The notes under the pieces were generated by a model that saw only the letters and a list, made by a program, of their open reading frames with translations, was not told the origin of the DNA and searched no databases. Of a stretch of DNA of 64,000 bases, positions 4,711 to 63,278 are shown one piece after another; positions within the stretch are counted from its first letter, which is position 1; each line of letters opens with the position of its first letter. Origin of the DNA: Candidatus Eremiobacteria bacterium (GTDB lineage: Bacteria; Vulcanimicrobiota; Vulcanimicrobiia; Vulcanimicrobiales; Vulcanimicrobiaceae); NCBI GenBank assembly GCA_963737065.1, contig CAVTRC010000001.1:2336001-2400000 (forward strand). Direction: 5' to 3'. The position numbers were made by a program, and so were the translations under genes.

Positions 4711-5460
4711 ATGAGCGACGTCGTGTACAGCGATGACGGGGCCGTCGCATCGATCCGGTTCAACCGTCCCGAGAAGAAGAACGCAATTACGCTTGCAATG
4801 TATGCTGCGATGGCGTCGGCGCTCGAGGACGCCGATCGCAACGATGACATCCGCGTCGTCGGCCTCTTCGGTGGCGACGTATTCACGGCGGGCAACGATA
4901 TCGGCGATTTCTTAGCGGGAGGCGAATTCGGCTCCGCGGATCACCCGGCGCTGCGGTTTCTGCGCGCGATCCGCGAGTTTCGCAAGCCGATCGTCGCGGG
5001 CGTGAAGGGGGCCGCCATCGGCATCGGCACGACGCTGCTGATGCATTGCGACGCGGTTGTTGCGGGAAAGTCGGCGCGCTTTTCGATGCCGTTTACGAAG
5101 CTCGGCATCGTACCGGAGGGCGGCGCAAGCGCTCTCTTTGCGCTGATCGCCGGACGGATGCGTGCATCGTGGTATTTGCTCTCCGGCGAGCAGTTCGGCG
5201 CGCAGCAAGCATTCGAAATGGGCTTCGTGACGCGCGTCACTGATGATGACGACGTCGACGCGGCGGTGGCGATGATGTGCGGCGAACTTGCAGAACTTCC
5301 GAAGAACTCCGTCATGACCACCAAGCGATTGCTGAAGGCGCGTTTCACCGACATCGTCGTCGCCGCGATGAACGACGAAGCGCACGATTTCGCCGCCGCG
5401 CTGCAGTCCGACGAAGCGCGCGCGTCGTTCATGAAGTTCCTCGATGCCTCGCGAAAGTAG
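4711..5460 (+). CDS. Enoyl-CoA hydratase/isomerase family protein
   Basis: NRPEKKNAI, FTAGND, AIGIG, GIVPEGG. Confidence 0.9.
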   Translation: MSDVVYSDDGAVASIRFNRPEKKNAITLAMYAAMASALEDADRNDDIRVVGLFGGDVFTAGNDIGDFLAGGEFGSADHPALRFLRAIREFRKPIVAGVKGAAIGIGTTLLMHCDAVVAGKSARFSMPFTKLGIVPEGGASALFALIAGRMRASWYLLSGEQFGAQQAFEMGFVTRVTDDDDVDAAVAMMCGELAELPKNSVMTTKRLLKARFTDIVVAAMNDEAHDFAAALQSDEARASFMKFLDASRK

Positions 5461-5890
5461 ACTGTTCGTCAAGACCGGCGTCGCGGCGCTGATTCTCGCC
5501 TTTGCATGGGGCGCAGCGATGGCGCTTAGGGAGGCGCGCGGCGGTAGCGCCGGCGACCTTTGGCCGGTGGAGCACGCGCATCTTGCCTTTGTCGGCTGGC
5601 TCGTCAACTTCGTCATCGGCTTTGCGCTCTGGCTCTTGCCGCTCAATCGCGAACGCTATCCGCAAACGCAAGGGCGGTACTTGGCGTGGATGCCGCTTGC
5701 GATCTATCTGTTGCTCAACGTCGGGCTCGTCGCGCGGATCGTCTCCGAGCCGTTTGCTTATCAAAGCGAAATCGCGCGCATCGTTCTCGGAGTATCGGGC
5801 ATCGCGCAGCTCGCGGCGATTCTTCTCTTTGCGGCGCTTGCATGGTCGCGGACACGGGCTCCTGCGCGGCCTGCGCCGGGTGTGCGCTAA
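5444..5890 (+). CDS. Small membrane protein with HAH motif (heme-copper oxidase subunit I-like/NnrS-like repeat)
   Basis: About 4 TM helices, EHAHLAFVGW motif. Confidence 0.6.
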   Translation: MPRESRLFVKTGVAALILAFAWGAAMALREARGGSAGDLWPVEHAHLAFVGWLVNFVIGFALWLLPLNRERYPQTQGRYLAWMPLAIYLLLNVGLVARIVSEPFAYQSEIARIVLGVSGIAQLAAILLFAALAWSRTRAPARPAPGVR

Positions 5891-7080
5891 TGTGGGGGTC
5901 GTGGATTCCGCCGGTTCCGCTCACGCTCGGCGCGTTCTTCGGCATTGTTGCGTGGATTCTCGCGATCGCCTACGGAATCGAACCGTCGTTCGCGCGCGGC
6001 CTCGCGTGGATTCATGCAATCGCGCTCGGTTCCATCACCACGATTGCGCTCTCCGTGCTCATTCACGTCATTCCGGCATTCACCGATCTCGAGTGGCGGT
6101 TTCGAGCGGTCGCGCGATGGTGCGCATTCTTTCTGCCGTTCGCCGCGGCGGGGCTCGTCGCCGCGTTCTTCGTGATGAATCTAGGCGGGATTGCGGCGTT
6201 CGGCAGCGTTGCTGCGGTCATCATCGCCGTCTACGTTATCGTCGCAATCATGACGCTCGCGCAACGGGCACCGACGCGGCTGGAAGGAGCGGTCGCGCGA
6301 GCATTCCTCATTGTCATGGGCTTTCTCGGCGTGGCCGTGCTCATCGGCGGCGACGTTGCGCATGGATTGTGGAGTGGTGAGGCGCGAGTTCTACGCTACG
6401 CGCCCGTGCATGCGACGCTCGCAATTGTGGGCTGGTTAACGATGCTCGTGATGGGCGTGTCCGCGCGGACGTTTCGTCCGCTGTTACGCTCGGACTCGCG
6501 ATTGCGGCGGGTTCATATCCCGGCGACTTCCAGTATGTTCTTTTGTGCCGTGCTTGCAGCGATTGGGTTCGCTATCGCAAACGTTGCCGTTACAACTGCC
6601 GGTTTTGCACTCGGACTCGTGGGATCGCTGCTGTACGCGGCCGATGGTTTCGATCGCGTTCGACGCGCGTCCACACCGAATCGTCCCGCGCACGTCTTCA
6701 TCGCCTTCGCGTTTGTCTGGCTGATCGTCGCCGCGGTAGCGGCACTGCTTGCGAATTATCCCGTAGCGATCGTCATCGTCCTCGCCGGATGGCTCGGACA
6801 GATGGTCAACGCGCACTTGCATCATCTCGGCATTCGCGTGATTGCTACGACCTTCGGCGGTGAAGACAATGAAACGCCCCCGTGGCAGATCCTTGACATG
6901 CGAGTTGCATGGACGAGCGTTGTTCTCGATCAGCTGGCCGTGCTCGCGCTGGCGATCGGTGTGCTCGCGTCCTCATCACCGCTGATCGTCTGCGGTGGAA
7001 TTGCCGGCCTTGCCGGTATGCTCGCATTCTTACTCAATGCGCGCATCGCGATGCAAAGAGTAACGCCCGGACTCGTTTGA
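5890..7080 (+). CDS. Polytopic membrane protein (NnrS-like / heme-copper oxidase subunit I-like repeats)
   Basis: TAATG coupling to upstream gene; about 12 TM helices; WIHAIALG, VHATLAIVGW, HLHH. Confidence 0.6.
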   Translation: MWGSWIPPVPLTLGAFFGIVAWILAIAYGIEPSFARGLAWIHAIALGSITTIALSVLIHVIPAFTDLEWRFRAVARWCAFFLPFAAAGLVAAFFVMNLGGIAAFGSVAAVIIAVYVIVAIMTLAQRAPTRLEGAVARAFLIVMGFLGVAVLIGGDVAHGLWSGEARVLRYAPVHATLAIVGWLTMLVMGVSARTFRPLLRSDSRLRRVHIPATSSMFFCAVLAAIGFAIANVAVTTAGFALGLVGSLLYAADGFDRVRRASTPNRPAHVFIAFAFVWLIVAAVAALLANYPVAIVIVLAGWLGQMVNAHLHHLGIRVIATTFGGEDNETPPWQILDMRVAWTSVVLDQLAVLALAIGVLASSSPLIVCGGIAGLAGMLAFLLNARIAMQRVTPGLV

Positions 7081-7114
7081 GCCGGGCGTTACGCGGTGTA
7101 ACCCGTTGCGTGCC

Positions 7115-8950
7115 TTACGGATTGCTCGGCGTTTGGGGGTCACCCGCAAATGGGCCGAACGGATCGAGTACGTATCTTGCGGCATACGGCGTGCCGTTGC
7201 CGAGCACGTAGTTATAACCTCTGCGCGTCGGGTAGCCGTTGTTGCCCGGGATATCGTTACGGAACACCGTATCGTTACCGCCGAACGCGAGTAGATAGAT
7301 CGGGTCGTTGGCGTTGCCGACGCGTCCACCAAGCGCTTCATCTTGAACTGCCTGCAAGCCCGCGAACTCGGGAGCCGCAGCACTCGTTCCGATGAGCAAG
7401 TAGAGGCCGCCGGCGAGCGCGGTGACATCCGAGCTGCGATGCGCGCCGCACGGTTGAATGGCGCCGAACGGGCAACCACCCATGTGCATTGCAACGTCCG
7501 GAACAGTGCGCATACTGGAACGCGTGTTTACGAGGTATTGATAGAGCGGTTTCTTCCAATACACACTGATACCGCCGCCCGAGCCCCAGACTGAGCCGGG
7601 CGCGTATCCGTACGACGGATCGAGTGGATCGTCGTATGCGTTCTCGGAAACGTATTTCGAGGTCAACGAATTTGCCACGTGTGTCGTCTGCAAATTCGTT
7701 CCGCCGACGCCCGTCGTGTTCGGATCGTTTGCCGGCCAAATCACGCCTTTGAGCGCCGTACTTCCCGAAGGATCGGTGCATCCGTATGCGCCGCCGTCGC
7801 CCGAGGAGTTGACGAACGTGATTCCTTGCGCATTGCCTTGACGGAACACGTCATGGAACGTCTGGAAGAGATACGTGAAATCTTCCCCGCCATTATACGG
7901 CTTGGTGAAGTACAATTCGCAAAGGCCGAACGACGCGCTCGAAACATCGGCTTGGTTGTCGTCGACGATCGCCGTGTACATGTCGAGGAACGACGGAACG
8001 ATCGACGCATCGGGCGCTTCGTATACGACGAGTCTGGCACCAGGCGCTGAGCCGCCGGCTTGCTGCACGTCGAGAGACACTTCATCAGAGGCGCCGCTGT
8101 TGATGTCGAAGGGCGGGCTTCCGCCGTCAACCGGGCGGCGCTCGATCGCCGGCGGCGTTAGCTTTTCGTGACCGAAATACAGGGCGACATCGCTATCGAG
8201 AAAGTCGCTCGCAGCGAGAATCGCGATCGTCTTTCCCGAACCGTTGAGCCGCGTGTATGACGGATACTTGTACGCTTCTTTAAGATCGTCGAACCAGTAC
8301 GGGCCGTCGACGCTGTAGCGATTCTGCGTAATGGGCGTCTTCGACACCAGCGCCGACTGCGGTCGCATCGCCGGAAGCGGCGCGAACGCTGCAACTTGAG
8401 CGTTTACCGACTTCAGTGCGGCGGGCAGCACGGGCGCGGTGTTGGCTCGCAGCATCGGCGTCGCTTCGTGACCGCGTGCGAGCGTGCTCATGCGGCGTGT
8501 CAAGTGCACGCCGAACGTCTTTTCTACGGTCGCCTGCGGAGCGTCCGCCACGACACCTTGCGTCGTGATCACGGTGCGGAAGCCTTGCGCGTTCAACGCC
8601 GTTGCGACCGTGCGCAAATCGTTCGCGGTCGCGCCGTATGACGCACGGAATTGCGCCGGCGTAAGCCAATGGTGGTACATCGGCGACTTCTTATCGTTTT
8701 GCTCCGAAATCAGCTTATCGAGTTCGCTGCTGTTGCGAAGCGGCAGATGAACGTAAAGCCGAACGCCCTGAGCCGCCGTCTTTGGAACGGTCGCATACAT
8801 GGCATTGTCGGCGGAGCTGGTGTTGGCATTCGAAAGTGACTGTGGTGATGTATCGGAGGTCGTGGGTATCGAGTTGTTTCCGCCCCCGCTGCAAGCGGAT
8901 AAGGCGAAAGCCGCAACGGCACTAGCCGTTGCAACAATGCGGAATCTCAT
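7115..8950 (-). CDS. S53 (sedolisin/kumamolisin) serine peptidase, lipoprotein
   Basis: LSAC lipobox; prodomain WLTPAQFRASYG; EVSLD, SSGD, GTSAAAP catalytic motifs. Confidence 0.9.
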   Translation of the reverse strand: MRFRIVATASAVAAFALSACSGGGNNSIPTTSDTSPQSLSNANTSSADNAMYATVPKTAAQGVRLYVHLPLRNSSELDKLISEQNDKKSPMYHHWLTPAQFRASYGATANDLRTVATALNAQGFRTVITTQGVVADAPQATVEKTFGVHLTRRMSTLARGHEATPMLRANTAPVLPAALKSVNAQVAAFAPLPAMRPQSALVSKTPITQNRYSVDGPYWFDDLKEAYKYPSYTRLNGSGKTIAILAASDFLDSDVALYFGHEKLTPPAIERRPVDGGSPPFDINSGASDEVSLDVQQAGGSAPGARLVVYEAPDASIVPSFLDMYTAIVDDNQADVSSASFGLCELYFTKPYNGGEDFTYLFQTFHDVFRQGNAQGITFVNSSGDGGAYGCTDPSGSTALKGVIWPANDPNTTGVGGTNLQTTHVANSLTSKYVSENAYDDPLDPSYGYAPGSVWGSGGGISVYWKKPLYQYLVNTRSSMRTVPDVAMHMGGCPFGAIQPCGAHRSSDVTALAGGLYLLIGTSAAAPEFAGLQAVQDEALGGRVGNANDPIYLLAFGGNDTVFRNDIPGNNGYPTRRGYNYVLGNGTPYAARYVLDPFGPFAGDPQTPSNP

Positions 8951-24955: not shown

Positions 24956-25089
24956 CAACATGGCGACGACACAAGAGATGTTTAGGCGCGCCCTAGGGGC
25001 GAGTATTGCTTTCCAAAACCTGTCGCGCGCCATGGTCCGGGGGCCCCACGAAGTGGGGGGTGCGCAGGCTAGGCCGGAGCACCTTTCAA

Positions 25090-25584
25090 ATGGCTAAATC
25101 CAAACAGACGCGACTTCAAGCGAAAGAAGAAACGAAGAAGCATAACGCGCCGGCGGTTGATAATCGGCGTGCGCGGCACGAGTACCACATCCTCGATTCG
25201 GTCGAAGCCGGGCTGGCATTGACGGGAACGGAAGTGAAGTCGATTCGTCAGGGCGGCGTGAGCTTGAATGAAGCGTATGCGCGCTTTCGCGACGGCGAAG
25301 CGTGGCTGCTCGGCATGCACGTGCCGTCGTACAAACAGGGCAGCTTTTCCAACGTCGATCCCAATCGCCCGCGCAAATTGCTGTTGCACAAAGGACAAAT
25401 CAACGACTTACAGTCGCGCGTGAAAGAGAAGGGGCTGACGATCGTGCCGCTGCGGATGTATTTCACGCGTGGCAAAGTGAAGGTGCAACTGGGACTCGCG
25501 CGCGGCAAAAAGATGTGGGACAAACGCGAAGACATCGCCAAACGCGACGTCGAACGCGAAATCCAACGCCATGCGAGGGGCTAA
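25090..25584 (+). CDS. smpB: SsrA-binding protein
   Basis: NRRARHEY, EAGLALTGTEVKSIR, RKLLLHK, GLARGKK..DKRE. Confidence 0.97.
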   Translation: MAKSKQTRLQAKEETKKHNAPAVDNRRARHEYHILDSVEAGLALTGTEVKSIRQGGVSLNEAYARFRDGEAWLLGMHVPSYKQGSFSNVDPNRPRKLLLHKGQINDLQSRVKEKGLTIVPLRMYFTRGKVKVQLGLARGKKMWDKREDIAKRDVEREIQRHARG

Positions 25585-26458
25585 ACCGGAAGCGGCGATC
25601 GAGCAGAGCGTCGAGCGCGACGGGATCGTTCGCAAAGGGGATCGCGTCGTCGTTGCGTGCAGCGGCGGCGCCGATTCGGTTGCACTAGCAGCGGCGCTGT
25701 GCGCCGTGCGCGCGCCAATGGCACTCCAACTCACGCTCGCGTATGTCAACCACGGCACGCGCGAGTCGGCGTGGCAAGACGAGTGCGTCGCGCTGCGGAT
25801 CGGCGCAACATTCGGCATTCCTGTTCGCGTCGTGCCGCTCTCCGGCGATCGGTGTGATGAGGCATCGCTGCGGAAGGCACGCTACGAGGCGCTGCTCGAC
25901 ATCGCGCGCGACGTCCGTGCGAACGTCGTTGCAACCGCGCATCATCAAGAGGATCAAAGCGAGACGGTGATGCTTGCACTGTTGCGCGGCACCGGGCCCG
26001 GTGGGATGGTGGGCATGCGTCCGCGCCGCGAAATGGCGCCGGGCATTGAACTTGCGCGTCCACTGCTGCGCATGGCTTCCCACGAGCTACGCCACTATTG
26101 CCACGTTCATGCATTGCCGTACGCGGTCGACCCGACGAATGCCGACCTCGGCTTACGCCGAAACGCCGTTCGCCAAGCGCTTGAAGCGCTTCGTCCGTAT
26201 TTCCCCGCTCTCGATGCTGCCGTCGCGCGCACCGCCGAACTGCTCGGCGAAGAGGCCGAGCGAACCGGCCGCGCGGCATTGCGCCGGCGCGTTCGCGACG
26301 CTCTCGACACGGAACAGGCGCTGCGTGACGTCGATTTTCAGCACGTCGAAGCCGCCGTACGCGCGTTGGAACGCGGCCGCTCCGGGCGCTTTCATATGAG
26401 GACCGGCATTGAAGTAGAAATCGCAGGCGGCAAGATTATCGTTAGAAAGGCGCAGTGA
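25571..26458 (+). CDS. tilS: tRNA(Ile)-lysidine synthase
   Basis: SGGADS PP-loop, TAHHQEDQSET, RPLL, RNAVR. Confidence 0.93.
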   Translation: MRGAKPEAAIEQSVERDGIVRKGDRVVVACSGGADSVALAAALCAVRAPMALQLTLAYVNHGTRESAWQDECVALRIGATFGIPVRVVPLSGDRCDEASLRKARYEALLDIARDVRANVVATAHHQEDQSETVMLALLRGTGPGGMVGMRPRREMAPGIELARPLLRMASHELRHYCHVHALPYAVDPTNADLGLRRNAVRQALEALRPYFPALDAAVARTAELLGEEAERTGRAALRRRVRDALDTEQALRDVDFQHVEAAVRALERGRSGRFHMRTGIEVEIAGGKIIVRKAQ

Positions 26459-27033
26459 AGACGACGGATTCCTACGACGCAGCAATCGAGCGGGCGCTCT
26501 TCACCGCAGAGGAAATCGCCGGCGCACTCGCGCGTCTCGCGAAGCAGATCGCGGACGACTACCGCGGGCAACCGTTGACCCTGGTCGGCGTGTTGAAAGG
26601 AGCGCTCTATGTCGTCACCGACCTCGCGCGTGCGCTCGCCGCGATTCCGGACGGCCCGAGCGAAATCATCGTGGACTACATCTGCGTTTCCAGCTACGGG
26701 AATTCTACGCGTTCGTCGGGCGAGGTTCGTATGCTCAAGGACGTGAGTGAGCCCATGACCGGCCGCAACGTCGTGATCGTCGAGGACATCGTGGATAACG
26801 GCCTCACGTTGCAGTACCTCCGGTCGTTACTCGAAGAGCGGAGGCCGGCACGCCTGCGAGCCTGCGTCCTCTTCAACAAGCCCTACCACCGGCGTGTCGA
26901 CGTCCCGATCGACTATATCGGCCTACAATCTCCTGACGAATTCGTCGTAGGTTACGGTTTGGACTACCAGGAACTGTTCCGGAACCTGCCCTACCTGGCA
27001 CAGCTCCGTCCAGCCGTCTTTAAGGAAGGGTAG
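26455..27033 (+). CDS. hpt: Hypoxanthine phosphoribosyltransferase
   Basis: VLKG, VEDIVDNGLTL, FVVGYGLDY; tilS-hpt-ftsH synteny. Confidence 0.95.
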   Translation: MKTTDSYDAAIERALFTAEEIAGALARLAKQIADDYRGQPLTLVGVLKGALYVVTDLARALAAIPDGPSEIIVDYICVSSYGNSTRSSGEVRMLKDVSEPMTGRNVVIVEDIVDNGLTLQYLRSLLEERRPARLRACVLFNKPYHRRVDVPIDYIGLQSPDEFVVGYGLDYQELFRNLPYLAQLRPAVFKEG

Positions 27034-27087
27034 AGTCTAATATATCGCGTGAACGCGCGATCAAACACATCAAAGGCTTTTTAAGTA

Positions 27088-29004
27088 GTGAGTAAACATC
27101 TCCGGTCCATTCTTCTGATCGTGCTCGCCGTCATCGCGGTTTTCGTGATCGTCGAGCGTATGGTGCAGCCGGGTGAAGGGGCGACGAATCTCCCTTACGG
27201 CAAGTTCTATCAGAAGCTGGAATCGTATCAGGTTGAGTCCTTCAACGCCGTCGGCCAACAGGCGTCCGGCGCGCTTTCGGATGGTTCGAAGTACACCGTC
27301 TCGTTGCCGAACACCGATCACGAGTTTGTGAAAGACGTGCAGGCGCACGTCAAGAGCGGACAAGTGAATTTCCAGCAGCAGAGCAACAGCGGGCTACTTT
27401 CGAGTCTCGTAACGCTCGCGCCGCTGCTGTTGATGGCGCTCTTCCTGTTCTTCATTCTTCGTCAAGCGCAAAGCGGCGGAAGCCAAGCGCTCTCGTTCGG
27501 GCGGTCGCGCGCGAAGATGATGTCGGAGAATCGTCCGAAGGTCACGTTCGCCGACGTTGCGGGTGTCGATGAGGCAAAAGAGGAGCTCGGCGAAATCGTC
27601 GACTTCCTGAAGTACCCGAAGAAATATCAGGCACTCGGAGCGCGCATTCCGAAAGGCGTATTGCTGCTCGGACCGCCGGGATCCGGTAAGACGCTGCTCG
27701 CACGCGCTATCGCAGGCGAAGCCGGCGTGCCGTTCTTCTCGATCTCCGGTTCGGATTTCGTCGAGATGTTCGTCGGTGTCGGCGCTTCGCGCGTTCGCGA
27801 CCTCTTCGATCAAGCGAAGAAATCCGCGCCGTGTATCGTCTTCATCGACGAAATCGATGCGGTTGGGCGGCAGCGCGGCGCCGGCCTCGGCGGCGGACAC
27901 GACGAGCGCGAACAGACGCTCAACCAATTGCTTGTCGAGATGGACGGCTTCGATCAAAACACGGGCGTCATCTTGATCGCGGCGACGAACCGCCCCGACG
28001 TGCTCGATCCCGCCCTGCTTCGTCCCGGCCGCTTCGACCGTCAAATCGTCGTCGATCGCGCCGACTTCCGCGGCCGTCAGAAGATTCTGGAAGTGCACGC
28101 GCGCAACAAGCCGCTCTCGAAGGAAGTCTCCCTGGAAACGCTTGCAAAGCGCACGCCGGGCTTCTCGGGTGCAGATCTCGAGAATCTATTGAACGAAGCG
28201 GCGCTGCTCGCGGCGCGCAAGAACAAGAACATCATCGAGATGCAAGATTGCGATGAAGCGATCGACCGCGTCATGGTCGGCCCGGAGCGTAAGTCGACGG
28301 TGATGTCGAAGAAAGAAAAAGAGAACACGGCGTATCACGAGTCGGGCCACGCCATCCTTGGCGGCATGCTCGATAAAGCCGATCCGGTGCACAAGGTCAC
28401 GATCATTCCACGCGGTATGGCGCTCGGCTTAACGTGGTCGCTCCCCGAAGACGATCGCCACAGCGTCACCAAAGAAGAACTGCTCGCGCAAATCACGATG
28501 GCGCTCGGTGGCCGTCTGGCCGAAGAGATTCAATTCGGCGACGTCACGACCGGTGCGAGCAACGACTTCCAAAAGGCAACCGAACTCGCGCGCCGCATGG
28601 TGACGCAGTACGGCATGAGCTCGCTCGGCCCGATTCAGTTCGGACGCGGCAACCACCAGGTATTCCTCGGCCGCGATCTCGGCGAAGAGCGTAACTACTC
28701 TGAAGAAGTTGCGAGCAAAATCGACGGCGAGGTTCGGAACATCATCGAAACGTGCTATCAGCAAGGCCGCAAGATTCTCGGCGAAAACTGGGATAAGGTG
28801 GAACGTATGGTAGCCTCGCTGCTCGAGTACGAAACCGTTGACGCCGAAGAAGTACGCGCGATTCTCGAGGGAAAGCCTTACGATAAAAATTCAGGTGGAA
28901 CCGGCGTCTCTGCCGTGCCGCCTGCGCCCGAAAAACCCGCGGAGGAGCCGCAGCGCGAGAAGCCCTCGCGACTGCCCCCAACGATTCGCCCGGAACCGGC
29001 ATGA
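27088..29004 (+). CDS. ftsH: ATP-dependent zinc metalloprotease FtsH
   Basis: 2 TM helices, [26 protein letters not shown]. Confidence 0.98.
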
Positions 29005-53582: not shown

Positions 53583-54896
53583 ATGGATTTTGCGGCGGCG
53601 CAGAATTACCTGATCGGGACGATCAACGAAACCGTATCGCGGCGGATGCCGTATCGGCTAGAGCGCATGCGCACGTTTATGTCCGAACTGGGCGATCCGC
53701 AAGATACGTATCCGACGATTCACATCGGCGGCACGAGCGGAAAAGGTTCGACGTCAACCATGGTCGCCGCAATGATCGGCTCGGCAGGGAAACGCGTCGG
53801 GCTGCATACCAAGCCGCACTTGAAATCGATGACCGAGCGCGCGCGTATCAACGGCTTGGCGATTTCCGAGGAACGGTTCGCGCATATTTTGCAGTCAATG
53901 ATGCCGGCGATCGATCGCACGGCGCAAGTGGCCGGGCGTCCGACGTATTACGAGACGTTGCTTGCAATTGCGTTTGTTTATTTTGCCGAGGAGCACGTTG
54001 ACGTCGCGGTCATCGAAGTTGGATTGGGCGGCCGCGTGGACGGAACCAACGTCATTACGCCGCTCGTTTCGGCGATTACGTCGATCGGATTCGATCACAT
54101 GGACGTGCTCGGCGAAAGGCTTGAAGAGATCGCGCTCGAGAAGGCGGGTATTGCAAAGTCCGGCGTTCCGCTCGTGAGTCTCGTCGAAGACGCCGGTGCG
54201 CGCGCCGTTGTCGAGGAAGCTGCGCGGCGCGCCGGCGCGCCGTTCATCGACGTCGCGGCGACTGTGAGCATCGAGGATGTACGGCTTTCTCCCGACGGAC
54301 AGTCCTTCGCCATCATCACGCCCGGCACGCGCTACGGTCTTTCGACGCCGATGCTCGGCGAATTTCAACGCCGGAACGCATCGACCGCAATCTCCGTTGG
54401 GGAAGCGCTCCCGCCGGCATTTCGTCCTACCGTTCGCGACGTAGAAGAAGCGTTCGCGTCGCTGACGATTCCCGGGCGCATGGAGTACTATCCGGGACAT
54501 CCCGGCGTGCTCTTCGACATTGCGCACAACGCGGAAAAAGCGGAGCATCTCGTGCGGTCACTGCAAGAGCACTTTCCCAATCGCCGCTTCACGTTCGTCG
54601 TCGCGATCGGCGAAAGCAAGGACTCGTACGAGATCCTGCGGCGCTTCGCTGCGCTACCGCTCAAGTTCATCTTTACGTCGTTCGAAATCGCCGGGCGTAC
54701 GGCGACGAAGCCTCAACGATTGGCGGCGATTGCGGAGTCGCTCGGTTCGTGGGGACGAGTCGTGCAAGATCCGGTCGAGGCGATGGAGATCGCGCGCCGG
54801 ACGAGCGGCGCCGATGAAATCATCGTCGTCACGGGTTCTACCTTTATCGTTGCAGAGATCCGAGGGTGGTGGTTAGGGACGATCGTCGCGGCGTAA
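53583..54896 (+). CDS. folC: Dihydrofolate/folylpolyglutamate synthase
   Basis: HIGGTSGKGST, EVGLGGRVDGTNV, DIAHN, VTGS. Confidence 0.95.
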   Translation: MDFAAAQNYLIGTINETVSRRMPYRLERMRTFMSELGDPQDTYPTIHIGGTSGKGSTSTMVAAMIGSAGKRVGLHTKPHLKSMTERARINGLAISEERFAHILQSMMPAIDRTAQVAGRPTYYETLLAIAFVYFAEEHVDVAVIEVGLGGRVDGTNVITPLVSAITSIGFDHMDVLGERLEEIALEKAGIAKSGVPLVSLVEDAGARAVVEEAARRAGAPFIDVAATVSIEDVRLSPDGQSFAIITPGTRYGLSTPMLGEFQRRNASTAISVGEALPPAFRPTVRDVEEAFASLTIPGRMEYYPGHPGVLFDIAHNAEKAEHLVRSLQEHFPNRRFTFVVAIGESKDSYEILRRFAALPLKFIFTSFEIAGRTATKPQRLAAIAESLGSWGRVVQDPVEAMEIARRTSGADEIIVVTGSTFIVAEIRGWWLGTIVAA

Positions 54897-55717
54897 TGCG
54901 CGTTCGCGCCAAAGACTTCGCGTGGGGAGGTTGCACGTATTTGATGGCGATCGTCAACGTCACGCCCGATTCCTTTTCCGGTGATGGACGCAAGCCCGAT
55001 GATGCGATCGAACACGCGGTGCGACAATGGCAGGCCGGCGCCGACATTCTCGATATCGGCGGTGAGTCGACGCGTCCCGGACACGAACCGGTCGACGACG
55101 CATTAGAGATCGAACGCATCCGTCCCGTCATCAGCGCAATCCGCCAGCGCCTTCCGCAAGCAATCATTTCCGTCGATACGTACAAGCCGGACGTTGCGCG
55201 CGCCGCGTACGCAGCGGGCGCGGACATGATCAACTCCGTGTGGGGCGCACCAAACGAGTTGATCGACGTTGCCGCCGAACTCGGGATGCCGCTCGCGGCG
55301 ATGCATAATCAGCGCGATACGCAGTATCATGGCGACGTCGTCGATGCCGTCGTCGAATTCTTGAGCGATTGCGTGGACCGCGCGAACGCTCGCGGACTTG
55401 CGGGACGCGTATTGCTGGATCCGGGAATTGGTTTCGGCAAGACGCCGAACCAAAACATCCGCGTGTTGCGCGGACTTCATCGCGTCTGCGCGCTCGGCTA
55501 TCCGACATTGCTTGGAACGTCACGAAAATCGACGATCGGAAAATTGACGGGGCGCGAAGCGCACGAACGGATTTACGGAACGGCCGCAACGACGGCGCTC
55601 GGTATCGCGGCCGGGATCGACATCGTCCGCGCGCACGACATTGCCCAACAACGCGACGTGATCAGCGTCGCGGACGCAATCGTGCGTAACTGGAGGCCGG
55701 CCGGATGGACCGGATAA
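54896..55717 (+). CDS. folP: Dihydropteroate synthase
   Basis: NVTPDSFS, GGESTRPG, DPGIGFGK, SRKS. Confidence 0.96.
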   Translation: MRVRAKDFAWGGCTYLMAIVNVTPDSFSGDGRKPDDAIEHAVRQWQAGADILDIGGESTRPGHEPVDDALEIERIRPVISAIRQRLPQAIISVDTYKPDVARAAYAAGADMINSVWGAPNELIDVAAELGMPLAAMHNQRDTQYHGDVVDAVVEFLSDCVDRANARGLAGRVLLDPGIGFGKTPNQNIRVLRGLHRVCALGYPTLLGTSRKSTIGKLTGREAHERIYGTAATTALGIAAGIDIVRAHDIAQQRDVISVADAIVRNWRPAGWTG

Positions 55718-56061
55718 GCCTGCGAAACATCGTCGCGCACGGTAAACACGGTGCCAACCCCGGCGAACGCGATCGCGCGCAGCCGCTCCATATCGAAGTC
55801 GATCTGCTCGTCGATCTCAGCCGCTCCGGGCTCACCGACCAGCTGCACGACACCGTCGACTACGCGGTCGTGTATGAAACGATCGTGAAGATTGTCGAGG
55901 ATCGGTCGTTCCAGCTACTCGAGCGCGTAGCATCGGTCATTCTCGACGAAATCTTTCGCGATCCGCGAATTGTGCGCGCTTCATTGGCGATCGCGAAGCC
56001 CGATGTCCTCGACGGCGCGACGCCGATCGTCCGGCTCGAACGCGACAACAGGAAAGTATAG
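55705..56061 (+). CDS. folB: Dihydroneopterin aldolase
   Basis: HG...ER..Q, TVDY, LLERVA, KP. Confidence 0.93.
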   Translation: MDRISLRNIVAHGKHGANPGERDRAQPLHIEVDLLVDLSRSGLTDQLHDTVDYAVVYETIVKIVEDRSFQLLERVASVILDEIFRDPRIVRASLAIAKPDVLDGATPIVRLERDNRKV

Positions 56062-56064
56062 CTG

Positions 56065-56523
56065 TTGCCGCTTGCGTACATCTCGGTTGGATCGAATTTG
56101 GACGATCCGGTCACCCAAGTTCGGCGCGGCATCGAAGCGCTGCGTTTCTTTGGAGAGATCGCCGCCGTCTCTCCGTTCTATCGCGCGAAACCCTGGGGAA
56201 CGATTTTGGATCAGCCGGACTTCGTCAACGCCGTTGTTGCGCTCGATACGCATCGCGGCCCGCGGGACTTGCTCAATTCGTTGAAAGCCGAAGAGGCGCG
56301 ATTGGGCCGCGTCCCCGGCGAGCGCTGGGGTCCGCGCGCAATTGACTTCGATATCCTGACGTACGGAGAGGAAACGGTCGACGAGTACGACCTGCGCATA
56401 CCTCACCCGCGCATGAACGAACGTGCCTTCGTGCTCGTCCCGCTCGCCGATTTGGACGAACGCTATGCCTCGGCACGCGACGCGCTCGGCACGAATGAAC
56501 TGCACACCGTGCAGCGAGTGTAA
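56065..56523 (+). CDS. folK: HPPK (6-hydroxymethyl-7,8-dihydropterin pyrophosphokinase)
   Basis: GSNL, QPDFVNAV, RWGPRAIDFDIL, PHPRMNERAFVL. Confidence 0.95.
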   Translation: MPLAYISVGSNLDDPVTQVRRGIEALRFFGEIAAVSPFYRAKPWGTILDQPDFVNAVVALDTHRGPRDLLNSLKAEEARLGRVPGERWGPRAIDFDILTYGEETVDEYDLRIPHPRMNERAFVLVPLADLDERYASARDALGTNELHTVQRV

Positions 56524-56585
56524 CGGCTCGCGGGTATGTCCGCGAAAACGGGGCGGAGCGCAAGACCGGCGAAACGGTAGCGCTC

Positions 56586-57005
56586 ATGTCCGAAGAGCCG
56601 CCTTCTTCTCTTGTTTCTCGCGTTCGTACTCTGGCCGACTATTTCGTCGGCACGGACCTGTTGCGTCTGCGCATCGAGCGCGATACGGAAGAAATTGAGC
56701 TCGGACGGCGCCATCTTCGTCCGGAGCTGGTTCCGCCGCTCGCGAGCGAACTGACGGCCCACGAGGCGCCGCCGATCAAGCTCGATGCGATCAAAGCGGA
56801 TCTCGTGGGAATCTTCCGGTTGAGCCGTCCTGTGCCATCGCCCGGGGAGCTCCTTGAGAGCGACCGCGAACTGGCGTATGTGGAAGCGCTCGGTATTCGC
56901 AATCCCGTCCGTAGCCGAGGGGCCGGCCGTGTCGTCTCGATCCTGCCGCCTGACGGCGGCGCGGTGGAATACGGACAAGTACTCTTCGAGATCGACCGAG
57001 GATAA
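56586..57005 (+). CDS. BCCP/AccB-like protein lacking the biotinyl-lysine
   Basis: [17 protein letters not shown] (canonical EAMKxxN), [10 protein letters not shown]; directly upstream of accC. Confidence 0.8.
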
Positions 57006-57010
57006 GACCG

Positions 57011-58438
57011 ATTTTCAATAAGGTGCTGATCGCCAACCGCGGCGAGATCGCATTGCGAATCAATCGCGCCTGCCGCGAGTTGGGCGTGCATACCGTTGCG
57101 ATTTTTTCCGAGGCCGATCGCGAGTCGCTGCACGTTCGCATGGCAGACGAGGCGTTCTGCGTCGGGCCTGGGCCGGTACCGCGTTCGTACCTCAATATAC
57201 CGAACATTATCTCGACCGCGCTGATTACGGGCTGCGACGCGATCCATCCCGGCTACGGATTTCTGGCAGAAAACGCGCGCTTCGCGGAGATCTGCGCCGA
57301 CCATGGGCTGACCTTCATCGGCCCGACCCCGTCGGTGATTTCCGCAATGGGCGACAAAGCAACAGCGAAGCGGGTCATGAAAGAAGCCGGCGTTGCGACG
57401 ACACCGGGAACGGATATCCTCGACTCCGTCGATGAAGCGAACCGTGCAGCAGAAGCGACCGGGTATCCGGTCCTCCTCAAGGCGACCGCCGGCGGCGGCG
57501 GCAAAGGCATGCGCGTCGTCGAGAACGCAAGCGAAATGGAACGCGCGTATGCGAGCGCGACCGCGGAAGCCGAGGCGAGCTTCAAAGACGGGCGTGTCTA
57601 CATGGAAAAGCTCATCCTCAATCCGCGTCATATCGAAGTGCAAGTGCTCGGTGACGACTTCGGTAATGTCGTGAGTTTGGGCGAACGCGATTGCTCGGTG
57701 CAGAAGCCGTCGCATCAAAAGCTCATCGAAGAATCGCCGGCGCCGCATCTTTCCGAACGCACGCGGGCGTCGTTGCTCGAGATGGCGGTACGCGCGTGCA
57801 AGCACGTCGGCTACACGAATGCGGGTACGCTGGAATTTCTCGTCACCGGTGACGAGGTGTATTTCATGGAGATGAACACGCGCATTCAAGTCGAGCACCC
57901 GGTGACGGAAATGGTCTATAGCGTCGATTTGGTCAAAGAACAGATTCGCATCGCCGCGGGCGAGCCGCTCGGTTACGAACAGAAGGACCTGCAGCTGCGC
58001 GGACACGCAATCGAATGCCGCATCAACGCAGAAGATGCATCCAACGGGTTCGCACCGCAGGCCGGCACACTCTCGCGCGTCGTCTTTCCCGGAGGCCCCG
58101 GCGTGCGCGTCGATACGCACGTGTTTTCCGGAACGGCGGTTCCGCCCTATTACGACTCCATGATCGCGAAGATCGTCGCGTTCGGCGCGACGCGTGAAGC
58201 GGCAATCGCGCGCATGGAGCGCGCGCTGCGCGAAACGGTGATCGAAGGCGTCAATACGACAATCGGCATGTGTCTCGAAATCCTCGCCACGCCGCAATTC
58301 CGTGAAGGCAAATACGACATTGTATTCCTGCCGAAGTTGCTGACGCAACTTGGGAATCGCGACGGTTTAACGGGTGCTGCGCCGTTCGCTTCGCACTCCC
58401 CACGCGCGAAGCCCGCGGCGTCCCCAAGGAAACTGTAA
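57011..58438 (+). CDS. accC: Acetyl-CoA carboxylase biotin carboxylase subunit (apparent ATT start at 57011; GTG at 57023)
   Basis: [52 protein letters not shown]. Confidence 0.96.
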
Positions 58439-58440
58439 CG

Positions 58441-58848
58441 ATGGCTTCGCGTCGGCACGGACGAGAACAAGCGTTACAAGCGCTCTACTCGATCCACGTC
58501 GGTCATCGTGAACCGGGCGATGCATTGACCGAGGTCGTCGGCGAGCGCGCCGACACGGCACATCGTACGTTCGTGCGGGATCTCGTGCTGGGCACACTTG
58601 ATTATGCTCCCGAAGCGGATAAGACGTTTCAGCCACTGCTCGAGGGCTGGACGGTCGAACGTTTGCCGACGATCGACCGTTTACTCTTAGAAATGGGCAC
58701 GTTCGAGCTTCGTTGCCGCCGCGACACGCCGCAGGCCGTCGTGATCAACGAGGCAGTAGAGCTTGCAAAAAAGTTCTCCACCGAAGAATCAAACCGATTC
58801 GTCAACGGCGTTTTGAATGCAGTCGCGAAACAAACGACCAACTCGTAA
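58441..58848 (+). CDS. nusB: Transcription antitermination factor NusB
   Basis: RRHGREQALQALY, INEAVELAKKF, FVNGVL. Confidence 0.95.
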   Translation: MASRRHGREQALQALYSIHVGHREPGDALTEVVGERADTAHRTFVRDLVLGTLDYAPEADKTFQPLLEGWTVERLPTIDRLLLEMGTFELRCRRDTPQAVVINEAVELAKKFSTEESNRFVNGVLNAVAKQTTNS

Positions 58849-58864
58849 AGCAAAGCGCGGTGGA

Positions 58865-60976
58865 ATGCCTCGCTGGGTGCGCGGCGTCCTCGTCGCGCTG
58901 CTGCTCTTGATTCTTTTTGCGGCCGGTACGATCGCCGGCATGGTTGCGGCATACTCGCGCAATCTTCCCGACATCAGCCGCATGGCGGATTATCAGCCGG
59001 CGAGTTCTACGCGGATCTTTGCTCGCGACGGCACGCCGCTCGCATCCGTTTACAAAGAAAATCGGGTATGGGTTCCGCTCTCACGCATTCCGTTGGTCGT
59101 GCAGCAAGCGGTTATCGCCAACGAGGATCACAACTTTTATTCGCACCACGGCGTAGACTTCGGCGGCATCATCCGCGCCGGTTTTGCCGATTTGACGCAT
59201 CAGCAATTTCAAGGCGCATCGACGATCACACAACAGCTCGCGCGCAAGCTGTTCCTGAACGACCAGGTCTCGATCTCGCGTAAAATCCAAGAGGCGCTGC
59301 TCGCCATGGAGATCGAGCGATACTACACGAAAGACGAGATCCTCGAGCGCTACCTCAACATGGTCTATCTCGGCTCCGGCGCCTACGGCGTCGATGCGGC
59401 CGCGCATACCTACTTCGGCGAGCGTGTCGAGAATTTGACCCTGCCGCAAGCCGCGATGCTCGCCGGCGTGATCGCCGCGCCTTCGGATTATTCGCCGTTT
59501 GTCAATCTCGAGCTCGCGAAAGACCGTCAGTCGCACGTGCTCGACCGCATGGCGGAGAGTCAGTTCATCACGCGCGCACAGGCCGATGCGGCGCGAGTCG
59601 CTGCCGTCGGACTGACGCACCAGCGCGCGCCCGGGTTGCAAGGCTATCTCTATCCGTACTACACGACGTACGTGATCGCACGGTTGGAGAAACTGTTCGG
59701 AAAACAAGCCGTGCAAGAGGGCGGGCTTCAGGTTTACACTGCGCTCGACATTCACATGGAGCAAGTCGCGCAAGACGCCGTTGACTGGGGTATCAAGGCC
59801 GCGGAAGAAGAAGGAATCGGCGCGCATCAAGCCGCGCTCGTTGCAATTCGCCCCTCGACGGGTGAAATCGTCGCGATGGTGGGCGGCACGCATTTCTCGT
59901 TAGAGAACCAATTCAACCGCGCGTGGCAGGCGCGGCGTCAGCCGGGTTCGTCGTTCAAAGTGTACGTGTATACTGCGGCGGTCGACGCGGGCATGCCGCC
60001 GAACACGATCATCGAAGACTCGCCGATCGGCTATCCGATGGGCGACGGAACAACCTGGTATCCCCGCGACGACGACAACAGTTTCATGGGCGACATCACG
60101 TTCCGTACGGCGCTCGCGCAGTCGCGCAATGTTGCCGCCGTTCGCCTCGCCGACAAGATCGGTATCGATAAAGTGATTCAGTACGCGCATCGCATGGGCG
60201 TAACGGCTCCGCTCGAAGCGAACCTGTCACTTGCACTTGGGTCCTCCGTCGTTTCGCCGCTCGATCAAGCCAGCGGGTATTCGACGCTCGCGAATCAGGG
60301 CGTGCACATTGACCCGTCGGCCATCAGACTCGTGCGCGATTCTCTCGGCAATTCGATTCTCGACGATCAATATCCGGAAGCAACGGAAGTCGTGAGCGCC
60401 GGAACGGCGTGGCTGATGACATCGATGCTCGAGGACGTCATCAACCACGGCACGGGATACCCGAACGCCATTATCGGACGGCCGGCCGCCGGTAAGACCG
60501 GAACGACGTCGGACTTCCGCGATGCATGGTTCGTCGGATACACGCCGGATTTGGTTACCGCGGTTTGGATCGGAAACGACAACTATTCGCGCATGGTGGA
60601 GTCGTACGGCGGAAACATTCCGGCTCGCATTTGGGCGCGGTTCATGAAAGGCGCGCTCGTGAAAGTTGCAAAACACGACTTCACGTTCCCTGAAGGTGAA
60701 GTCGTGAAAGTCGCGTCGTGTTCAGGCGGCTACGAGTATTATTTGAACGGCACGCAGCCGCAGAGCGGCTGCGGTTCCGGATATGCAGCGCAAGCCGCTG
60801 ATGTGCGCACGCCGGCACCCGGCGACACGTCATTGCCGTCGCTCTCGCCGCCGCCGCAAACGCTGCCGCCCGATGTAACGCCTCCTCCGAACAGCATCGG
60901 CGACGGCACGAACTACGTTCCGCTCGGGGATTCGCCGCAACCGAACGCCACGCCGACGTCGAAACCACGCCGGTGA
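58865..60976 (+). CDS. Class A penicillin-binding protein (PBP1A)
   Basis: EDHNFYSHHG, GASTITQQ, RKIQE, GSSFK, SRN, KTG. Confidence 0.94.
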   Translation: MPRWVRGVLVALLLLILFAAGTIAGMVAAYSRNLPDISRMADYQPASSTRIFARDGTPLASVYKENRVWVPLSRIPLVVQQAVIANEDHNFYSHHGVDFGGIIRAGFADLTHQQFQGASTITQQLARKLFLNDQVSISRKIQEALLAMEIERYYTKDEILERYLNMVYLGSGAYGVDAAAHTYFGERVENLTLPQAAMLAGVIAAPSDYSPFVNLELAKDRQSHVLDRMAESQFITRAQADAARVAAVGLTHQRAPGLQGYLYPYYTTYVIARLEKLFGKQAVQEGGLQVYTALDIHMEQVAQDAVDWGIKAAEEEGIGAHQAALVAIRPSTGEIVAMVGGTHFSLENQFNRAWQARRQPGSSFKVYVYTAAVDAGMPPNTIIEDSPIGYPMGDGTTWYPRDDDNSFMGDITFRTALAQSRNVAAVRLADKIGIDKVIQYAHRMGVTAPLEANLSLALGSSVVSPLDQASGYSTLANQGVHIDPSAIRLVRDSLGNSILDDQYPEATEVVSAGTAWLMTSMLEDVINHGTGYPNAIIGRPAAGKTGTTSDFRDAWFVGYTPDLVTAVWIGNDNYSRMVESYGGNIPARIWARFMKGALVKVAKHDFTFPEGEVVKVASCSGGYEYYLNGTQPQSGCGSGYAAQAADVRTPAPGDTSLPSLSPPPQTLPPDVTPPPNSIGDGTNYVPLGDSPQPNATPTSKPRR

Positions 60977-62313
60977 ATAGCCTGCCTCCGGGAACCGTCG
61001 TTCGGACCGTCAGCGAGTTCACGAGTGGGCTCACGAAATGGTTCTTGAATCAAACGGCCTTTCGCGGTGCGGCGATCAGCGGTGAGATCTCAGGACTGAA
61101 AGAAACGAGCGGCGGCCATTTGACGTTCGCGTTGAAGGACCGCGGCGCCGTTCTGAACTGCATCCTCTGGCAAAGCCGCGTGCGGCTCGTGCCGGCGCTG
61201 AAAAACGGCATCTCGGTTGTAGCCGTCGGAAATGTCGAATTGCGCGGCGAGTATAGCTCGTATCAAATGATCGTCGATACGGTGCAATTGACCGGCATCG
61301 GCGATCTTTTCGCGAAATTCGAGGCGCTCAAAGAGCAGTTTCGCGTCGAAGGGCTGTTTGAACCGGCACGCAAGCGCCGCGTCCCGGCGTTCGTGCGCAG
61401 CGTCGCGCTGATTTCCGCGCCATCGAGTAAAGCATCGGAAGATTTCTCGCACACGATGCGCTCGAAGGCACCGTTCGTGCGCGTGTACTTCATCGCGACT
61501 CGCGTCCAGGGGCAAGGAGCCGACGTCGATATTCGCGAGGCGTTCGACCGAGCCGATCGCATGGATGTCGACGCGGTGGTGTTGACGCGCGGCGGCGGTT
61601 CGTATGAAGATCTCTTCACATTTAACGAGGAGGTCGTCGTCCGCGCGATCGTGCGCTCGCGTCACCCGGTGATCACGGCAATCGGGCATCAAGAAGATCA
61701 CCATCTTGCCGACGACGTTGCCGATGCCGTCTACGGAACACCGTCGAAAGCGGCGGACGCTATCGCGCAGGCGTGGCTCGATGTCCGCGAGCGCATCACG
61801 CGCGCCAATCGCGATCTGAATCGTGCGCTTGAAACGGCGCTTGGAACGAAGTCCCAGTCGGTGTCATGGAGAACCGGGAATCTCCACGTCGTCGCGCGCT
61901 CGCGCCTCGGCGCCGAAGAGCGGCGCTTCGTTCAGCTCGAACGCCGTCTCCACGCGCAGAATCCGGTGCAACGCCTTTCCCTGGCTCGCGAGCGGCTCAC
62001 GCGAGCGCGAGCCAACCTCGATCAGTTTCCTTCGCGTTTGACGCACCTGCAAACCGTTTGTGAGACGCGCGTGTCCCGGCTCGATCCGACGTGGCAGCGA
62101 TCGCTGCAACTGCGGACGCACCGTGTACGCATGTCGGCGACGCTGTTAGACGGTCTAGACCCGAATGCACCGCTCGCTCGCGGCTATGCAATGATCTTCC
62201 GGGACGGGCAATTGGTTCGTTCGGCAACTGACGTGGCCGCCGGTGCGAACATCGTCGCGCGTCTCGGGCGCGGAAGGCTCGAAGCTCGCGTCGAAGCAAC
62301 GCGCGATGAATAG
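60973..62313 (+). CDS. xseA: Exodeoxyribonuclease VII large subunit
   Basis: GEISG...SGGH, VQG, RGGGSYEDL, AIGH, TPSKAA, LARGY. Confidence 0.93.
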   Translation: MNSLPPGTVVRTVSEFTSGLTKWFLNQTAFRGAAISGEISGLKETSGGHLTFALKDRGAVLNCILWQSRVRLVPALKNGISVVAVGNVELRGEYSSYQMIVDTVQLTGIGDLFAKFEALKEQFRVEGLFEPARKRRVPAFVRSVALISAPSSKASEDFSHTMRSKAPFVRVYFIATRVQGQGADVDIREAFDRADRMDVDAVVLTRGGGSYEDLFTFNEEVVVRAIVRSRHPVITAIGHQEDHHLADDVADAVYGTPSKAADAIAQAWLDVRERITRANRDLNRALETALGTKSQSVSWRTGNLHVVARSRLGAEERRFVQLERRLHAQNPVQRLSLARERLTRARANLDQFPSRLTHLQTVCETRVSRLDPTWQRSLQLRTHRVRMSATLLDGLDPNAPLARGYAMIFRDGQLVRSATDVAAGANIVARLGRGRLEARVEATRDE

Positions 62314-62512
62314 CGACTCATCGAATTCGTTCGAGTCGAAGTTGGCGCGAATCGACGCGATCGTCAAGGAACTCGAGACCAATCAGGTTCCGTTGGATCG
62401 CGCGATCGAGCTGTTCAAGGAAGGTAAGACGCTCTCGCGTGAGTGTGAGAGCATGCTGAAGACCGCGCAAGAGCAAGTCGACCGCGCAATGAGCGATGGC
62501 GGAACGACTTGA
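62306..62512 (+). CDS. xseB: Exodeoxyribonuclease VII small subunit
   Basis: SFE...IVKELE...[12 protein letters not shown]...C...L..A. Confidence 0.9.
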
Positions 62513-63278
62513 TGAAGTCGTTGCTGCCCGAACCGGCGTAAGCCGATCGCAGGCGCGCAGCCTCATCATGGAGGGACGCGTGCGCGTCAACGGCGTGCGG
62601 GCGACGAAGGCGGGGCAAAGCGTGCGCGCCGACGTTAGGATCGACGTCGAGCGTCCGCGTCCGTTCGTGAGCCGTGGAGGTGAGAAGCTCGACCACGCGC
62701 TCGATGTATTTGCGTTCGACGTTCGCGGACTCGACGTGCTCGACGTTGGGGCCTCGACCGGTGGCTTCACCGATTGCCTGTTGCAGCGCGGCGCAGCACG
62801 CGTGACCGCGGTCGACGTCGGCTACGGACAACTCGATTGGAAGTTGCGTAACGATGCACGCGTCACCGTTGTAGAACGTACAAATTTCCGGACGCTGCCG
62901 GACAACGCGTATCCCGGCGGCTTCGACGCGATCGTCATCGATACGTCGTTTATATCGCTCCGAACGATTCTCACGCGGGCGCGAACGTTTTTGCGTCCCA
63001 ACGCGCACATCATCGCGCTCATTAAACCCCAGTTCGAAGCGGGACGGGAACGCCTCGGCCGCGGTGGCGTCGTTCGCGATCCGTCGGTTCACCGCGACGT
63101 GCTGCGCGAACTGCGCGATGCCGCGCTGGAGCTGGGGCTCTCCATCGTTGCATTGACCGCATCGCCGCTGCTTGGGCCGGCCGGGAACCGCGAGTTTCTC
63201 GGCGACTTCCGCGCCGGAGGACTTCCGGTCGACGACAAGCGGATAGATGAAGTCGTCGGCGAAGGCGGTTCGGAATGA
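62496..63278 (+). CDS. tlyA: TlyA family RNA methyltransferase
   Basis: S4 domain, [35 protein letters not shown]. Confidence 0.94.

Follow-up and report, generated by a model that had tools for sequence, protein, structure and literature searches.

The question raised by this locus is what a gene might do that occupies the place of accB, immediately upstream of accC, when its product lacks the lysine to which biotin is attached. The window, a 64,000-nucleotide (64-kb) stretch of Candidatus Eremiobacteria contig CAVTRC010000001.1, contains on its forward strand, like the neighboring genes folK, accC, and nusB described below, an open reading frame (ORF; 56586..57005 with the stop codon, ATG start, TAA stop) for a 139-residue homologue of the biotin carboxyl carrier protein (BCCP, AccB), hereafter X. 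BCCP requires its biotin-carrying lysine. In X, codon 103 is GGT (56892-56894), which places Gly103 within V-E-A-L-G-I-R-N, and HMMER alignments to solved biotinyl domains set this glycine opposite the biotinyl-lysine, 'vealgirn' pairing with 'LEAMKMEH' of the methylcrotonyl-CoA carboxylase alpha subunit (3u9s) and with 'LEAMKMRN' of propionyl-CoA carboxylase (PCC; 8sgx). The hairpin motif E100-A-L-G103-I-R105-N-P-V-R-S110 (56883..56915) thus carries G103 at the place of the EAMKMMN lysine. X is a non-biotinylatable BCCP homologue in the accB slot; the initial annotation, which had noted the glycine codon at 56892, was right on both counts, with G103 present in 81 of 81 species and neither lysine of X (K65, K70) conserved. 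As to its role, the reading to which we give slightly better than even credence is that X is a non-catalytic partner of the biotin carboxylase (BC) AccC, a scaffold or regulator resembling the BADC proteins of plants.

Structure prediction recovers the three-part BCCP layout (N-terminal segment, proline-rich linker, biotinyl domain) that had first been read from the sequence. In an AlphaFold2 (AF2) model built from a 41-sequence alignment, with a mean predicted local distance difference test score (pLDDT) of 82.5, the AccB-type N-terminal domain (residues 9-42, 56610..56711) consists of a helix (9-21) and two strands (27-31 and 36-40) at a pLDDT of ~80, the flexible Pro/Ala-rich linker (residues 43-65, 56712..56780), with 5 prolines, is predicted to be disordered (pLDDT ~50), and residues 66-139 (56781..57002) form an eight-stranded biotinyl-domain fold without the biotinyl-lysine (pLDDT 95-98). 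Foldseek matches this C-terminal domain to 5gua from P. horikoshii (TMt 0.87), the E. coli BCCP 1bdo (0.83), 4hr7_G (0.82), and the Arabidopsis BCCP1 9a87 (0.80). The shortened thumb loop was likewise correctly recognized, the distance from VGIF to EALG being 22 residues in X versus 27 in the thumb-bearing lysine-type relatives P0264, P0216, and P0193; because the lysine-bearing relatives P0253 and P0257 also have the 22-residue spacing, the short thumb is uncoupled from the loss of the lysine. Against the family profiles, X passes Pfam PF00364 (Biotin_lipoyl; 25.6 bits, gathering threshold 22.1, residues 85-136) and falls far below the curated cut-off of the BCCP family TIGR00531 (26.3 bits, cut-off 115.2). 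Since X fails two defining features of AccB, the lysine and the family cut-off, accB is an unsuitable annotation for it.

When GTDB was scanned with each species represented by a single genome, 221 genomes proved to encode a relative, and the best 80 of these loci were analyzed together with the window, giving a sample of 81 species of Eremiobacterota/Vulcanimicrobiota; the 80 are titled accordingly, except for a few labelled Acidoferrum/Acidiferrales, Verrucomicrobiia, or simply 'bacterium', which are evident mislabels. The coding sequence (CDS) of X is intact in all 81 species, and within the hairpin E100, A101, L102, G103, and R105 are each found in 81/81, P107 and S110 each in 80/81, and I104 in 79/81. 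In the N-domain, R12, R14, L16, D24, R27, R29, and E38 are each shared by 75-81 of the 81 sequences. Window X contains two lysines only: position 65 is lysine in 6 of the 81 sequences, and position 70 is lysine in 61, arginine in 18, alanine in 1, and threonine in 1, leaving no conserved lysine anywhere in the protein. Mean pairwise identity falls from 0.86 in the hairpin to 0.70 in the C-domain, 0.56 in the N-domain, and 0.23 in the linker, and the median pairwise dN/dS of X is 0.32, compared with 0.33 for folK, 0.35 for folB, 0.22 for nusB, and 0.12 for accC, values that are rough because they were computed by NG86 at a dS of ~1.2. A word-indexed protein search returned 507 relatives, and EALG[IM]RN is present in all of the best 120 that were listed, none of which carries an [AS]MK motif, nor do any of 120 listed relatives fused to FolK. 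An exhaustive search of representative sequences gave 570 matches at E <= 1e-3, and the Leu-Gly pair (L102-G103) is retained in the X family down to ~36% identity. Retention of the lysine by close relatives, which would have pointed to decay or sequence error, is therefore not what the 120 near matches display, and both the EALG motif and the linkage to accC, when followed into relatives, hold throughout the 81 species. Conservation of this extent goes well past what chance could produce.

The gene directly downstream of X is accC, in the window (57011..58438, with a start at ATT 57011 or GTG 57023) as in 80 of 80 related loci. Its product scores 656.2 bits against TIGR00514 (cut-off 626.5) and matches solved biotin carboxylases at E = 4e-158, with the ATP-grasp, biotin-site, and 'ECRINAED' motifs aligned, and the mean column identity of AccC across 35 species of the phylum is 82%; judged by its sequence, the enzyme looks fully functional. 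The X stop codon lies 4-44 nt from the conserved AccC N terminus in 75 of the 81 loci, and in some the two genes overlap. In the window, the junction (56998..57013) reads as a GAGGA (56998-57002) within the last codons of X, 8 nt upstream of ATT 57011. At the usual AccC start, the 63 scorable loci have 35 ATT, 9 ATC, 13 GTG, 5 ATG, and 1 GTT, so that ATT or ATC stands at this position in 44, and the downstream peptide is conserved at the protein level. The accC start is probably the non-AUG codon ATT 57011 rather than GTG 57023, and the weak AUU/AUC start together with a Shine-Dalgarno sequence inside X suggests that translation of AccC may depend on that of X. Initiation at ATT or ATC is rare, and in some loci the accC start overlaps the X stop. 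It may also be mentioned that AccC residues 227-233 read 'QKPSHQK', compared with 'QRR-NQK' and 'QR-RHQK' in two solved biotin carboxylases, i.e. a one-residue insertion beside the conserved HQK, with Q227, K228, P229, H231, Q232, and K233 invariant in the 35 species, and that window AccC carries a tail of ~25 residues without counterpart in most relatives.

The complex that the initial annotation had proposed to model was predicted from AccC residues 1-445 (35-species alignment) and X (41-sequence alignment), with three controls. The AccC-X runs gave ipSAE values of 0.81, 0.81, and 0.83, whereas the best of the three controls reached 0.00; contact agreement was at least 94% and partner pLDDT at least 71, and of the pairs used as a yardstick, 116 of 157 solved complexes but no more than 2 of 215 mismatched pairs score as high as the mark that AccC-X attains. 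The predicted binding is in this way supported, with a likeness to the solved complex 4HR7 as a caveat that is taken up below. On the AccC side, the modeled interface lies in the N-domain (residues 30, 45-49, 60-61, 63-65, and 67-69), and on the X side it comprises residues 73-76, 101-102, 126, and 128-131, of which L73, V74, G75, A101, L102, Y129, and G130 are each found in 81/81 species. By this model, the N-domain of AccC is the most likely docking site for X.

Because AccC seems functional, a biotinylated partner or substrate is required, and the initial annotation had placed the true accB elsewhere in the genome. When all six frames of the 64-kb window were scanned for [EASV][AVSC]MK, the motif turned up in non-BCCP frames only, as chance matches, and a Pfam scan of 57 other window ORFs returned no biotin-related gene. 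A hidden Markov model (HMM) built from 19 lysine-bearing relatives and run over the window and the 80 loci, which span at most ~20 kb each, matched the 81 X sequences and three secondary segments within X ORFs, and nothing else. A lysine-bearing AccB of the phylum was also sought through protein clusters; the clusters of the 20 relatives looked up bore no Eremiobacterota name, and P0264 led to other phyla in the Atlas. Evidence for a second carrier comes from rows of the DRAM annotation table (supplement file 2 of PMC11180709) for Ca. Lamibacter sapmiensis, a metagenome-assembled genome (MAG) of Eremiobacterota. In these rows, scaffold 30 gene 4 is a 310-residue protein annotated as HPPK + Biotin_lipoyl and lies directly upstream of gene 3, a biotin carboxylase; scaffold 7 gene 11 is a separate 149-residue accB (K02160) between hisS and gmhA; scaffold 13 genes 53-54 are accD and accA; scaffold 12 genes 4-5 are a BC-BCCP fusion beside a PCC beta subunit; and other scaffolds carry a single-chain pyruvate carboxylase, birA, bioB, and two bioY. 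In this phylum, a full heteromeric acetyl-CoA carboxylase (ACC) set is thus annotated in one genome at least, with X as an extra. A real biotin carrier probably lies elsewhere, and by extension from the annotation of this related MAG we infer that the window's own genome uses a second accB; the part of the original claim that stands is the existence of a separate K02160 accB annotated in one related MAG; a canonical accB was not found within the 64-kb window. The literature searched offered nothing relevant on Eremiobacterota in combination with ACC or biotin. V. alpinus, the single species of this phylum in culture, is described as requiring high CO2 and as growing solely on yeast extract (PMC9758169); biotin and accB are unmentioned in that description and in 6 supplementary files of the paper, and to tie its CO2 requirement to an unusual carboxylase biology would be pure speculation.

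The upstream neighbor of X is folK (HPPK; 56065..56523, Pfam E = 2.7e-36), which in the window is a separate gene. folK is visible in 78 loci: it shares a single frame with X in 26, lies beside X as a separate gene in 22, the window among them, and in 30 is parted from X by an insertion of 1.9-5.2 kb that consists of one or two large opposite-strand genes (e.g. 8144-9961 in L001, and 4772-7204 and 8122-10002 in L007, all on the minus strand). By their HD-type motifs, recognized by eye without a Pfam scan, the inserted genes read as GAF/HD-GYP-like signaling proteins; with opposite-strand genes between folK and X, X-accC would have its own promoter region. The idea that an accB is hidden in these insertions was rejected, as they encode HD-GYP/GAF-type proteins. 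Where the genes are fused, as in L005, L033, L044, and L046-L049, X forms the C-terminal part of FolK-X. The protein database contains 280 such fusions, and the best 120 (P0280-P0399) are all 248-325 residues long, all with an HPPK domain and all with ALGIR; FolK-X fusion proteins are mostly annotated merely as HPPK. Apparent X-AccC fusions (P0148, P0183, and P0150) look like frameshifted low-quality reads and were not counted. The linkage to folK is variable, and accC is the constant companion of X, the order X-accC-nusB being kept in every locus of sufficient length. The corresponding order in Bacillus, accB-accC-...-nusB-...-xseA, indicates that X occupies the ancestral accB slot.

Among known systems, X comes closest to the BADC proteins, which the relevant passages of PMC12706156, PMC11926652, and PMC13585458 present as BCCP homologues without biotin that associate with BC and inhibit ACCase or help to assemble it, their proposed roles being those of a competitor or inhibitor or of an assembly 'glue'. 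Like the plant and algal BADCs (Arabidopsis BADC1-3), X is homologous to BCCP but has neither the biotinylation motif nor the lysine, and its connection is with the BC subunit of an ACCase of the heteromeric type, in the case of X by gene linkage and by the model. Unlike a BADC, it is bacterial, sits in the accB slot, is apparently translationally coupled to accC, is often fused to FolK, and has a frozen hairpin of its own. BADC function has been demonstrated experimentally, whereas that of X is proposed from sequence, model, and analogy; the comparison concerns features and proposed function, and common descent is not part of it. With the canonical AccB (TIGR00531, K02160; E. coli 1BDO and 4HR7), X shares the three-part layout, the fold, the place upstream of accC, and, as supported by the model, the contact with BC, but it differs in having G103 for the biotinyl-lysine, a thumb five residues shorter than in thumb-bearing relatives, and a score below the family cut-off. 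The actinobacterial epsilon subunits (AccE/PccE), cited as bacterial 'glue' subunits in PMC11926652, are also small non-catalytic subunits, which tether or activate the BC complex, as AccE tethers AccA3 in the reported structure of the M. smegmatis long-chain acyl-CoA carboxylase (LCC) complex (10.1101/2025.10.28.685139); their resemblance to X is functional only. MSMEG_0435/0436 of the mycobacterial LCC complex were considered as a bacterial BADC analogue and rejected, being KipA/KipI-like and not BCCP homologues.

On present evidence, X most likely works like a BADC, and by this analogy we would infer a regulatory or scaffold role. X may be viewed as a catalytically dead descendant of AccB that has kept the full BCCP architecture; with a glycine at the biotin attachment site, it would be unable to shuttle CO2, which would be carried instead by the real biotin carrier, the product of a second accB at another place in the genome. 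X and AccC would be made together from their close or overlapping genes, with AccC translation coupled to X, and X would dock on the BC N-domain through the conserved face formed by L73-V74-G75, A101-L102, and E128-Y129-G130. It could then either occupy the BCCP sites on AccC, competing with holo-AccB and throttling malonyl-CoA synthesis, or hold the BC/BCCP/carboxyltransferase (CT) assembly together. Several points weigh against this reading. The frequent fusion to FolK is not predicted by a role in ACC only. A canonical accB is found neither in the 64-kb window nor within 10 kb of X in the 80 loci, and the second accB comes from the automatic annotation of a single MAG, here read as annotation only. 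What the AccC-X score captures may be similarity to 4HR7, the solved BC-BCCP complex of E. coli, and not genuine binding. Finally, the most conserved segment of X, G103-S110, lies mostly outside the modeled interface, so that the model does not account for the frozen hairpin.

Other explanations share part of this evidence. That X is a decaying accB pseudogene or the product of a sequencing or assembly error would fit its poor TIGR00531 score (26.3 against a cut-off of 115.2 bits), but it is practically dismissed by conservation: all 81 coding sequences are intact with a dN/dS of 0.32, the replacement motif is identical in each of the 120 close homologues listed, which come from many sources, a change from AAG or AAA to GGT takes at least two base changes, and L102-G103 is invariant down to ~36% identity. 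Judged from these sequences, X is neither a decay product nor a sequencing error. One may instead suppose that X is a working carrier, holding free biotin or carboxybiotin on the G-I-R-N-P-V-R hairpin or borrowing a BCCP domain from another carboxylase, so that a classical AccB would be dispensable. No other part of the protein is as conserved as the hairpin, whose two invariant or near-invariant arginines could hold a carboxylate; X takes the accB position in all 81 species, and no other BCCP gene was seen in the window and the 80 loci. This absence, however, is judged from the 64 kb of the window and from related loci of ~20 kb at most, and the rows for the related genome discussed above list a separate K02160 accB and birA. 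We know of no precedent for non-covalent biotin carriage in ACC, and we hold this possibility to be very improbable.

It is also conceivable that X serves FolK rather than ACC, as an accessory or oligomerization module of HPPK in folate synthesis, its adjacency to accC being a legacy of an old accB locus. This would make sense of the single FolK-X frame in 26 of 78 loci and of the 280 fusion proteins, the best 120 of which all combine HPPK with ALGIR and one of which appears in the Ca. Lamibacter annotation. On the other hand, opposite-strand genes put 1.9-5.2 kb between folK and X in 30 of the 78 loci, accC is separated from X in none, the predicted interface is with AccC and involves invariant residues of X, and the loss of a stop codon between co-transcribed neighbors suffices to create a fusion; we regard a dedicated FolK partner as improbable. 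The N-terminal part of E. coli AccB represses the accBC operon, and X might similarly be mainly an expression regulator that senses AccC or holo-BCCP and sets transcription or translation of X-accC-nusB without any enzyme role. Such a role needs no lysine, and it would be in keeping with the N-domain residues R12, R14, L16, D24, R27, R29, and E38 kept in 75-81 of 81 sequences, with the tight coupling of X and accC, and with the weak AUU/AUC accC start in 44 of 63 loci. An N-domain-only regulator would need neither the C-domain nor the hairpin, yet both (0.70 and 0.86) exceed the N-domain (0.56) in conservation, and the Pfam and TIGR profile scans detected no nucleic-acid-binding family in X. 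Expression control as the main function is unlikely in our estimate, and it is compatible with a BADC-like partner of AccC rather than exclusive of it.

X is not the only BCCP-like family with a non-lysine tip. Further families were collected from the list of representatives and from a search seeded with an Arg-type relative, and the tip residue among the 120 matches listed is Arg in 45, Asn in 40, Lys in 19, and Gly in 4, the remaining 12 comprising one mis-anchored match and 11 left unclassified by the tip pattern. The Arg type reads IE[AS]MRLMNDC (P0179, P0400-P0446; two are named Armatimonas sp.) and the Asn type IQSLNVINEVE (P0452-P0515; named Chloroflexi and Ktedonobacteraceae); both are full-length BCCP-like proteins of 135-185 residues with a conserved non-lysine tip residue, and they differ from X in tip residue, motif, and, by the few names given, phylum. 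In the Atlas, the nearest clusters are called 'lipoyl-binding domain-containing' or 'hypothetical' and come from Vulcanimicrobiota and Chloroflexota. A quick tree (115 rows, 134 columns), poorly resolved and unrooted and so without bearing on the direction of change, places the X family in a starred clade (95) together with an ...EPPR[LIV] group (P0169-P0189; 146-239 residues, EAL[KR]L tip) in which Lys and Arg are swapped even between close sisters, and the Arg and Asn types fall outside this clade. The main canonical cluster has Lys in 27 of its 28 rows, and Lys and non-Lys tips require at least nine changes on the tree, at least four of them forced by starred branches.

These families allow a bolder version of the BADC-like reading, possible but doubtful, in which ACC control of the BADC type is not a plant invention and belongs to a large and so far unrecognized bacterial radiation of lysine-less BCCP paralogues, with the X hairpin gating AccC and AccC coupled to X. 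The radiation, as proposed, would include the Gly type of Eremiobacterota, an Arg type including Armatimonadota, an Asn type including Chloroflexota, and more; in Eremiobacterota, the frozen G-I-R-N-P-V-R hairpin would dock as a pseudo-substrate into the biotin site of either AccC or the carboxyltransferase, thereby gating malonyl-CoA synthesis, and AccC synthesis would be coupled codon-to-codon to that of X through the AUU/AUC start.

Acetyl-CoA carboxylase catalyzes the committed and tightly controlled step of fatty-acid synthesis and is a target of antibiotics and herbicides, and non-biotinylated BCCP look-alikes that bind BC are known as regulators or assembly factors in plastids only. BADCs are termed 'unique to the plant htACCase' in a passage of PMC11926652, and no bacterial BADC-like or lysine-less BCCP was described in the literature searched, which did not include two papers that may treat prokaryotic relatives, Salie et al. 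2016 and Conrado et al. 2024. Plants already provide the idea of ACCase regulation by a BCCP without the lysine, and within the scope of that literature the bacterial case appears to be new. If X is indeed a BADC-like partner of AccC, this phylum-wide bacterial counterpart would offer a simple and genetically tractable system for pseudo-carrier function, add a new layer to bacterial ACC regulation, and provide an independent origin or a possible source for comparison with the plant proteins. From an annotation point of view, X genes at present go under the names 'biotin carboxyl carrier protein' or 'hypothetical', and in fusions under HPPK alone, so that metabolic reconstructions may count a dead carrier as accB.

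In the window, X belongs to the order folC-folP-folB-folK-X-accC-nusB-PBP1A-xseA, with nusB (58441..58848; Pfam E = 6.7e-31) in the same-strand cluster X-accC-nusB-PBP1A. None of the mobile-element or tRNA-related features looked at occurs in 25006-29001 and 53583-63275. These two segments have a Firmicutes-like housekeeping order, with smpB, tilS, hpt, and ftsH and with folC-folP-folB-folK, which in 53583-63275 continues through accC-nusB-PBP1A-xseA to an FtsJ/TlyA-like methyltransferase.

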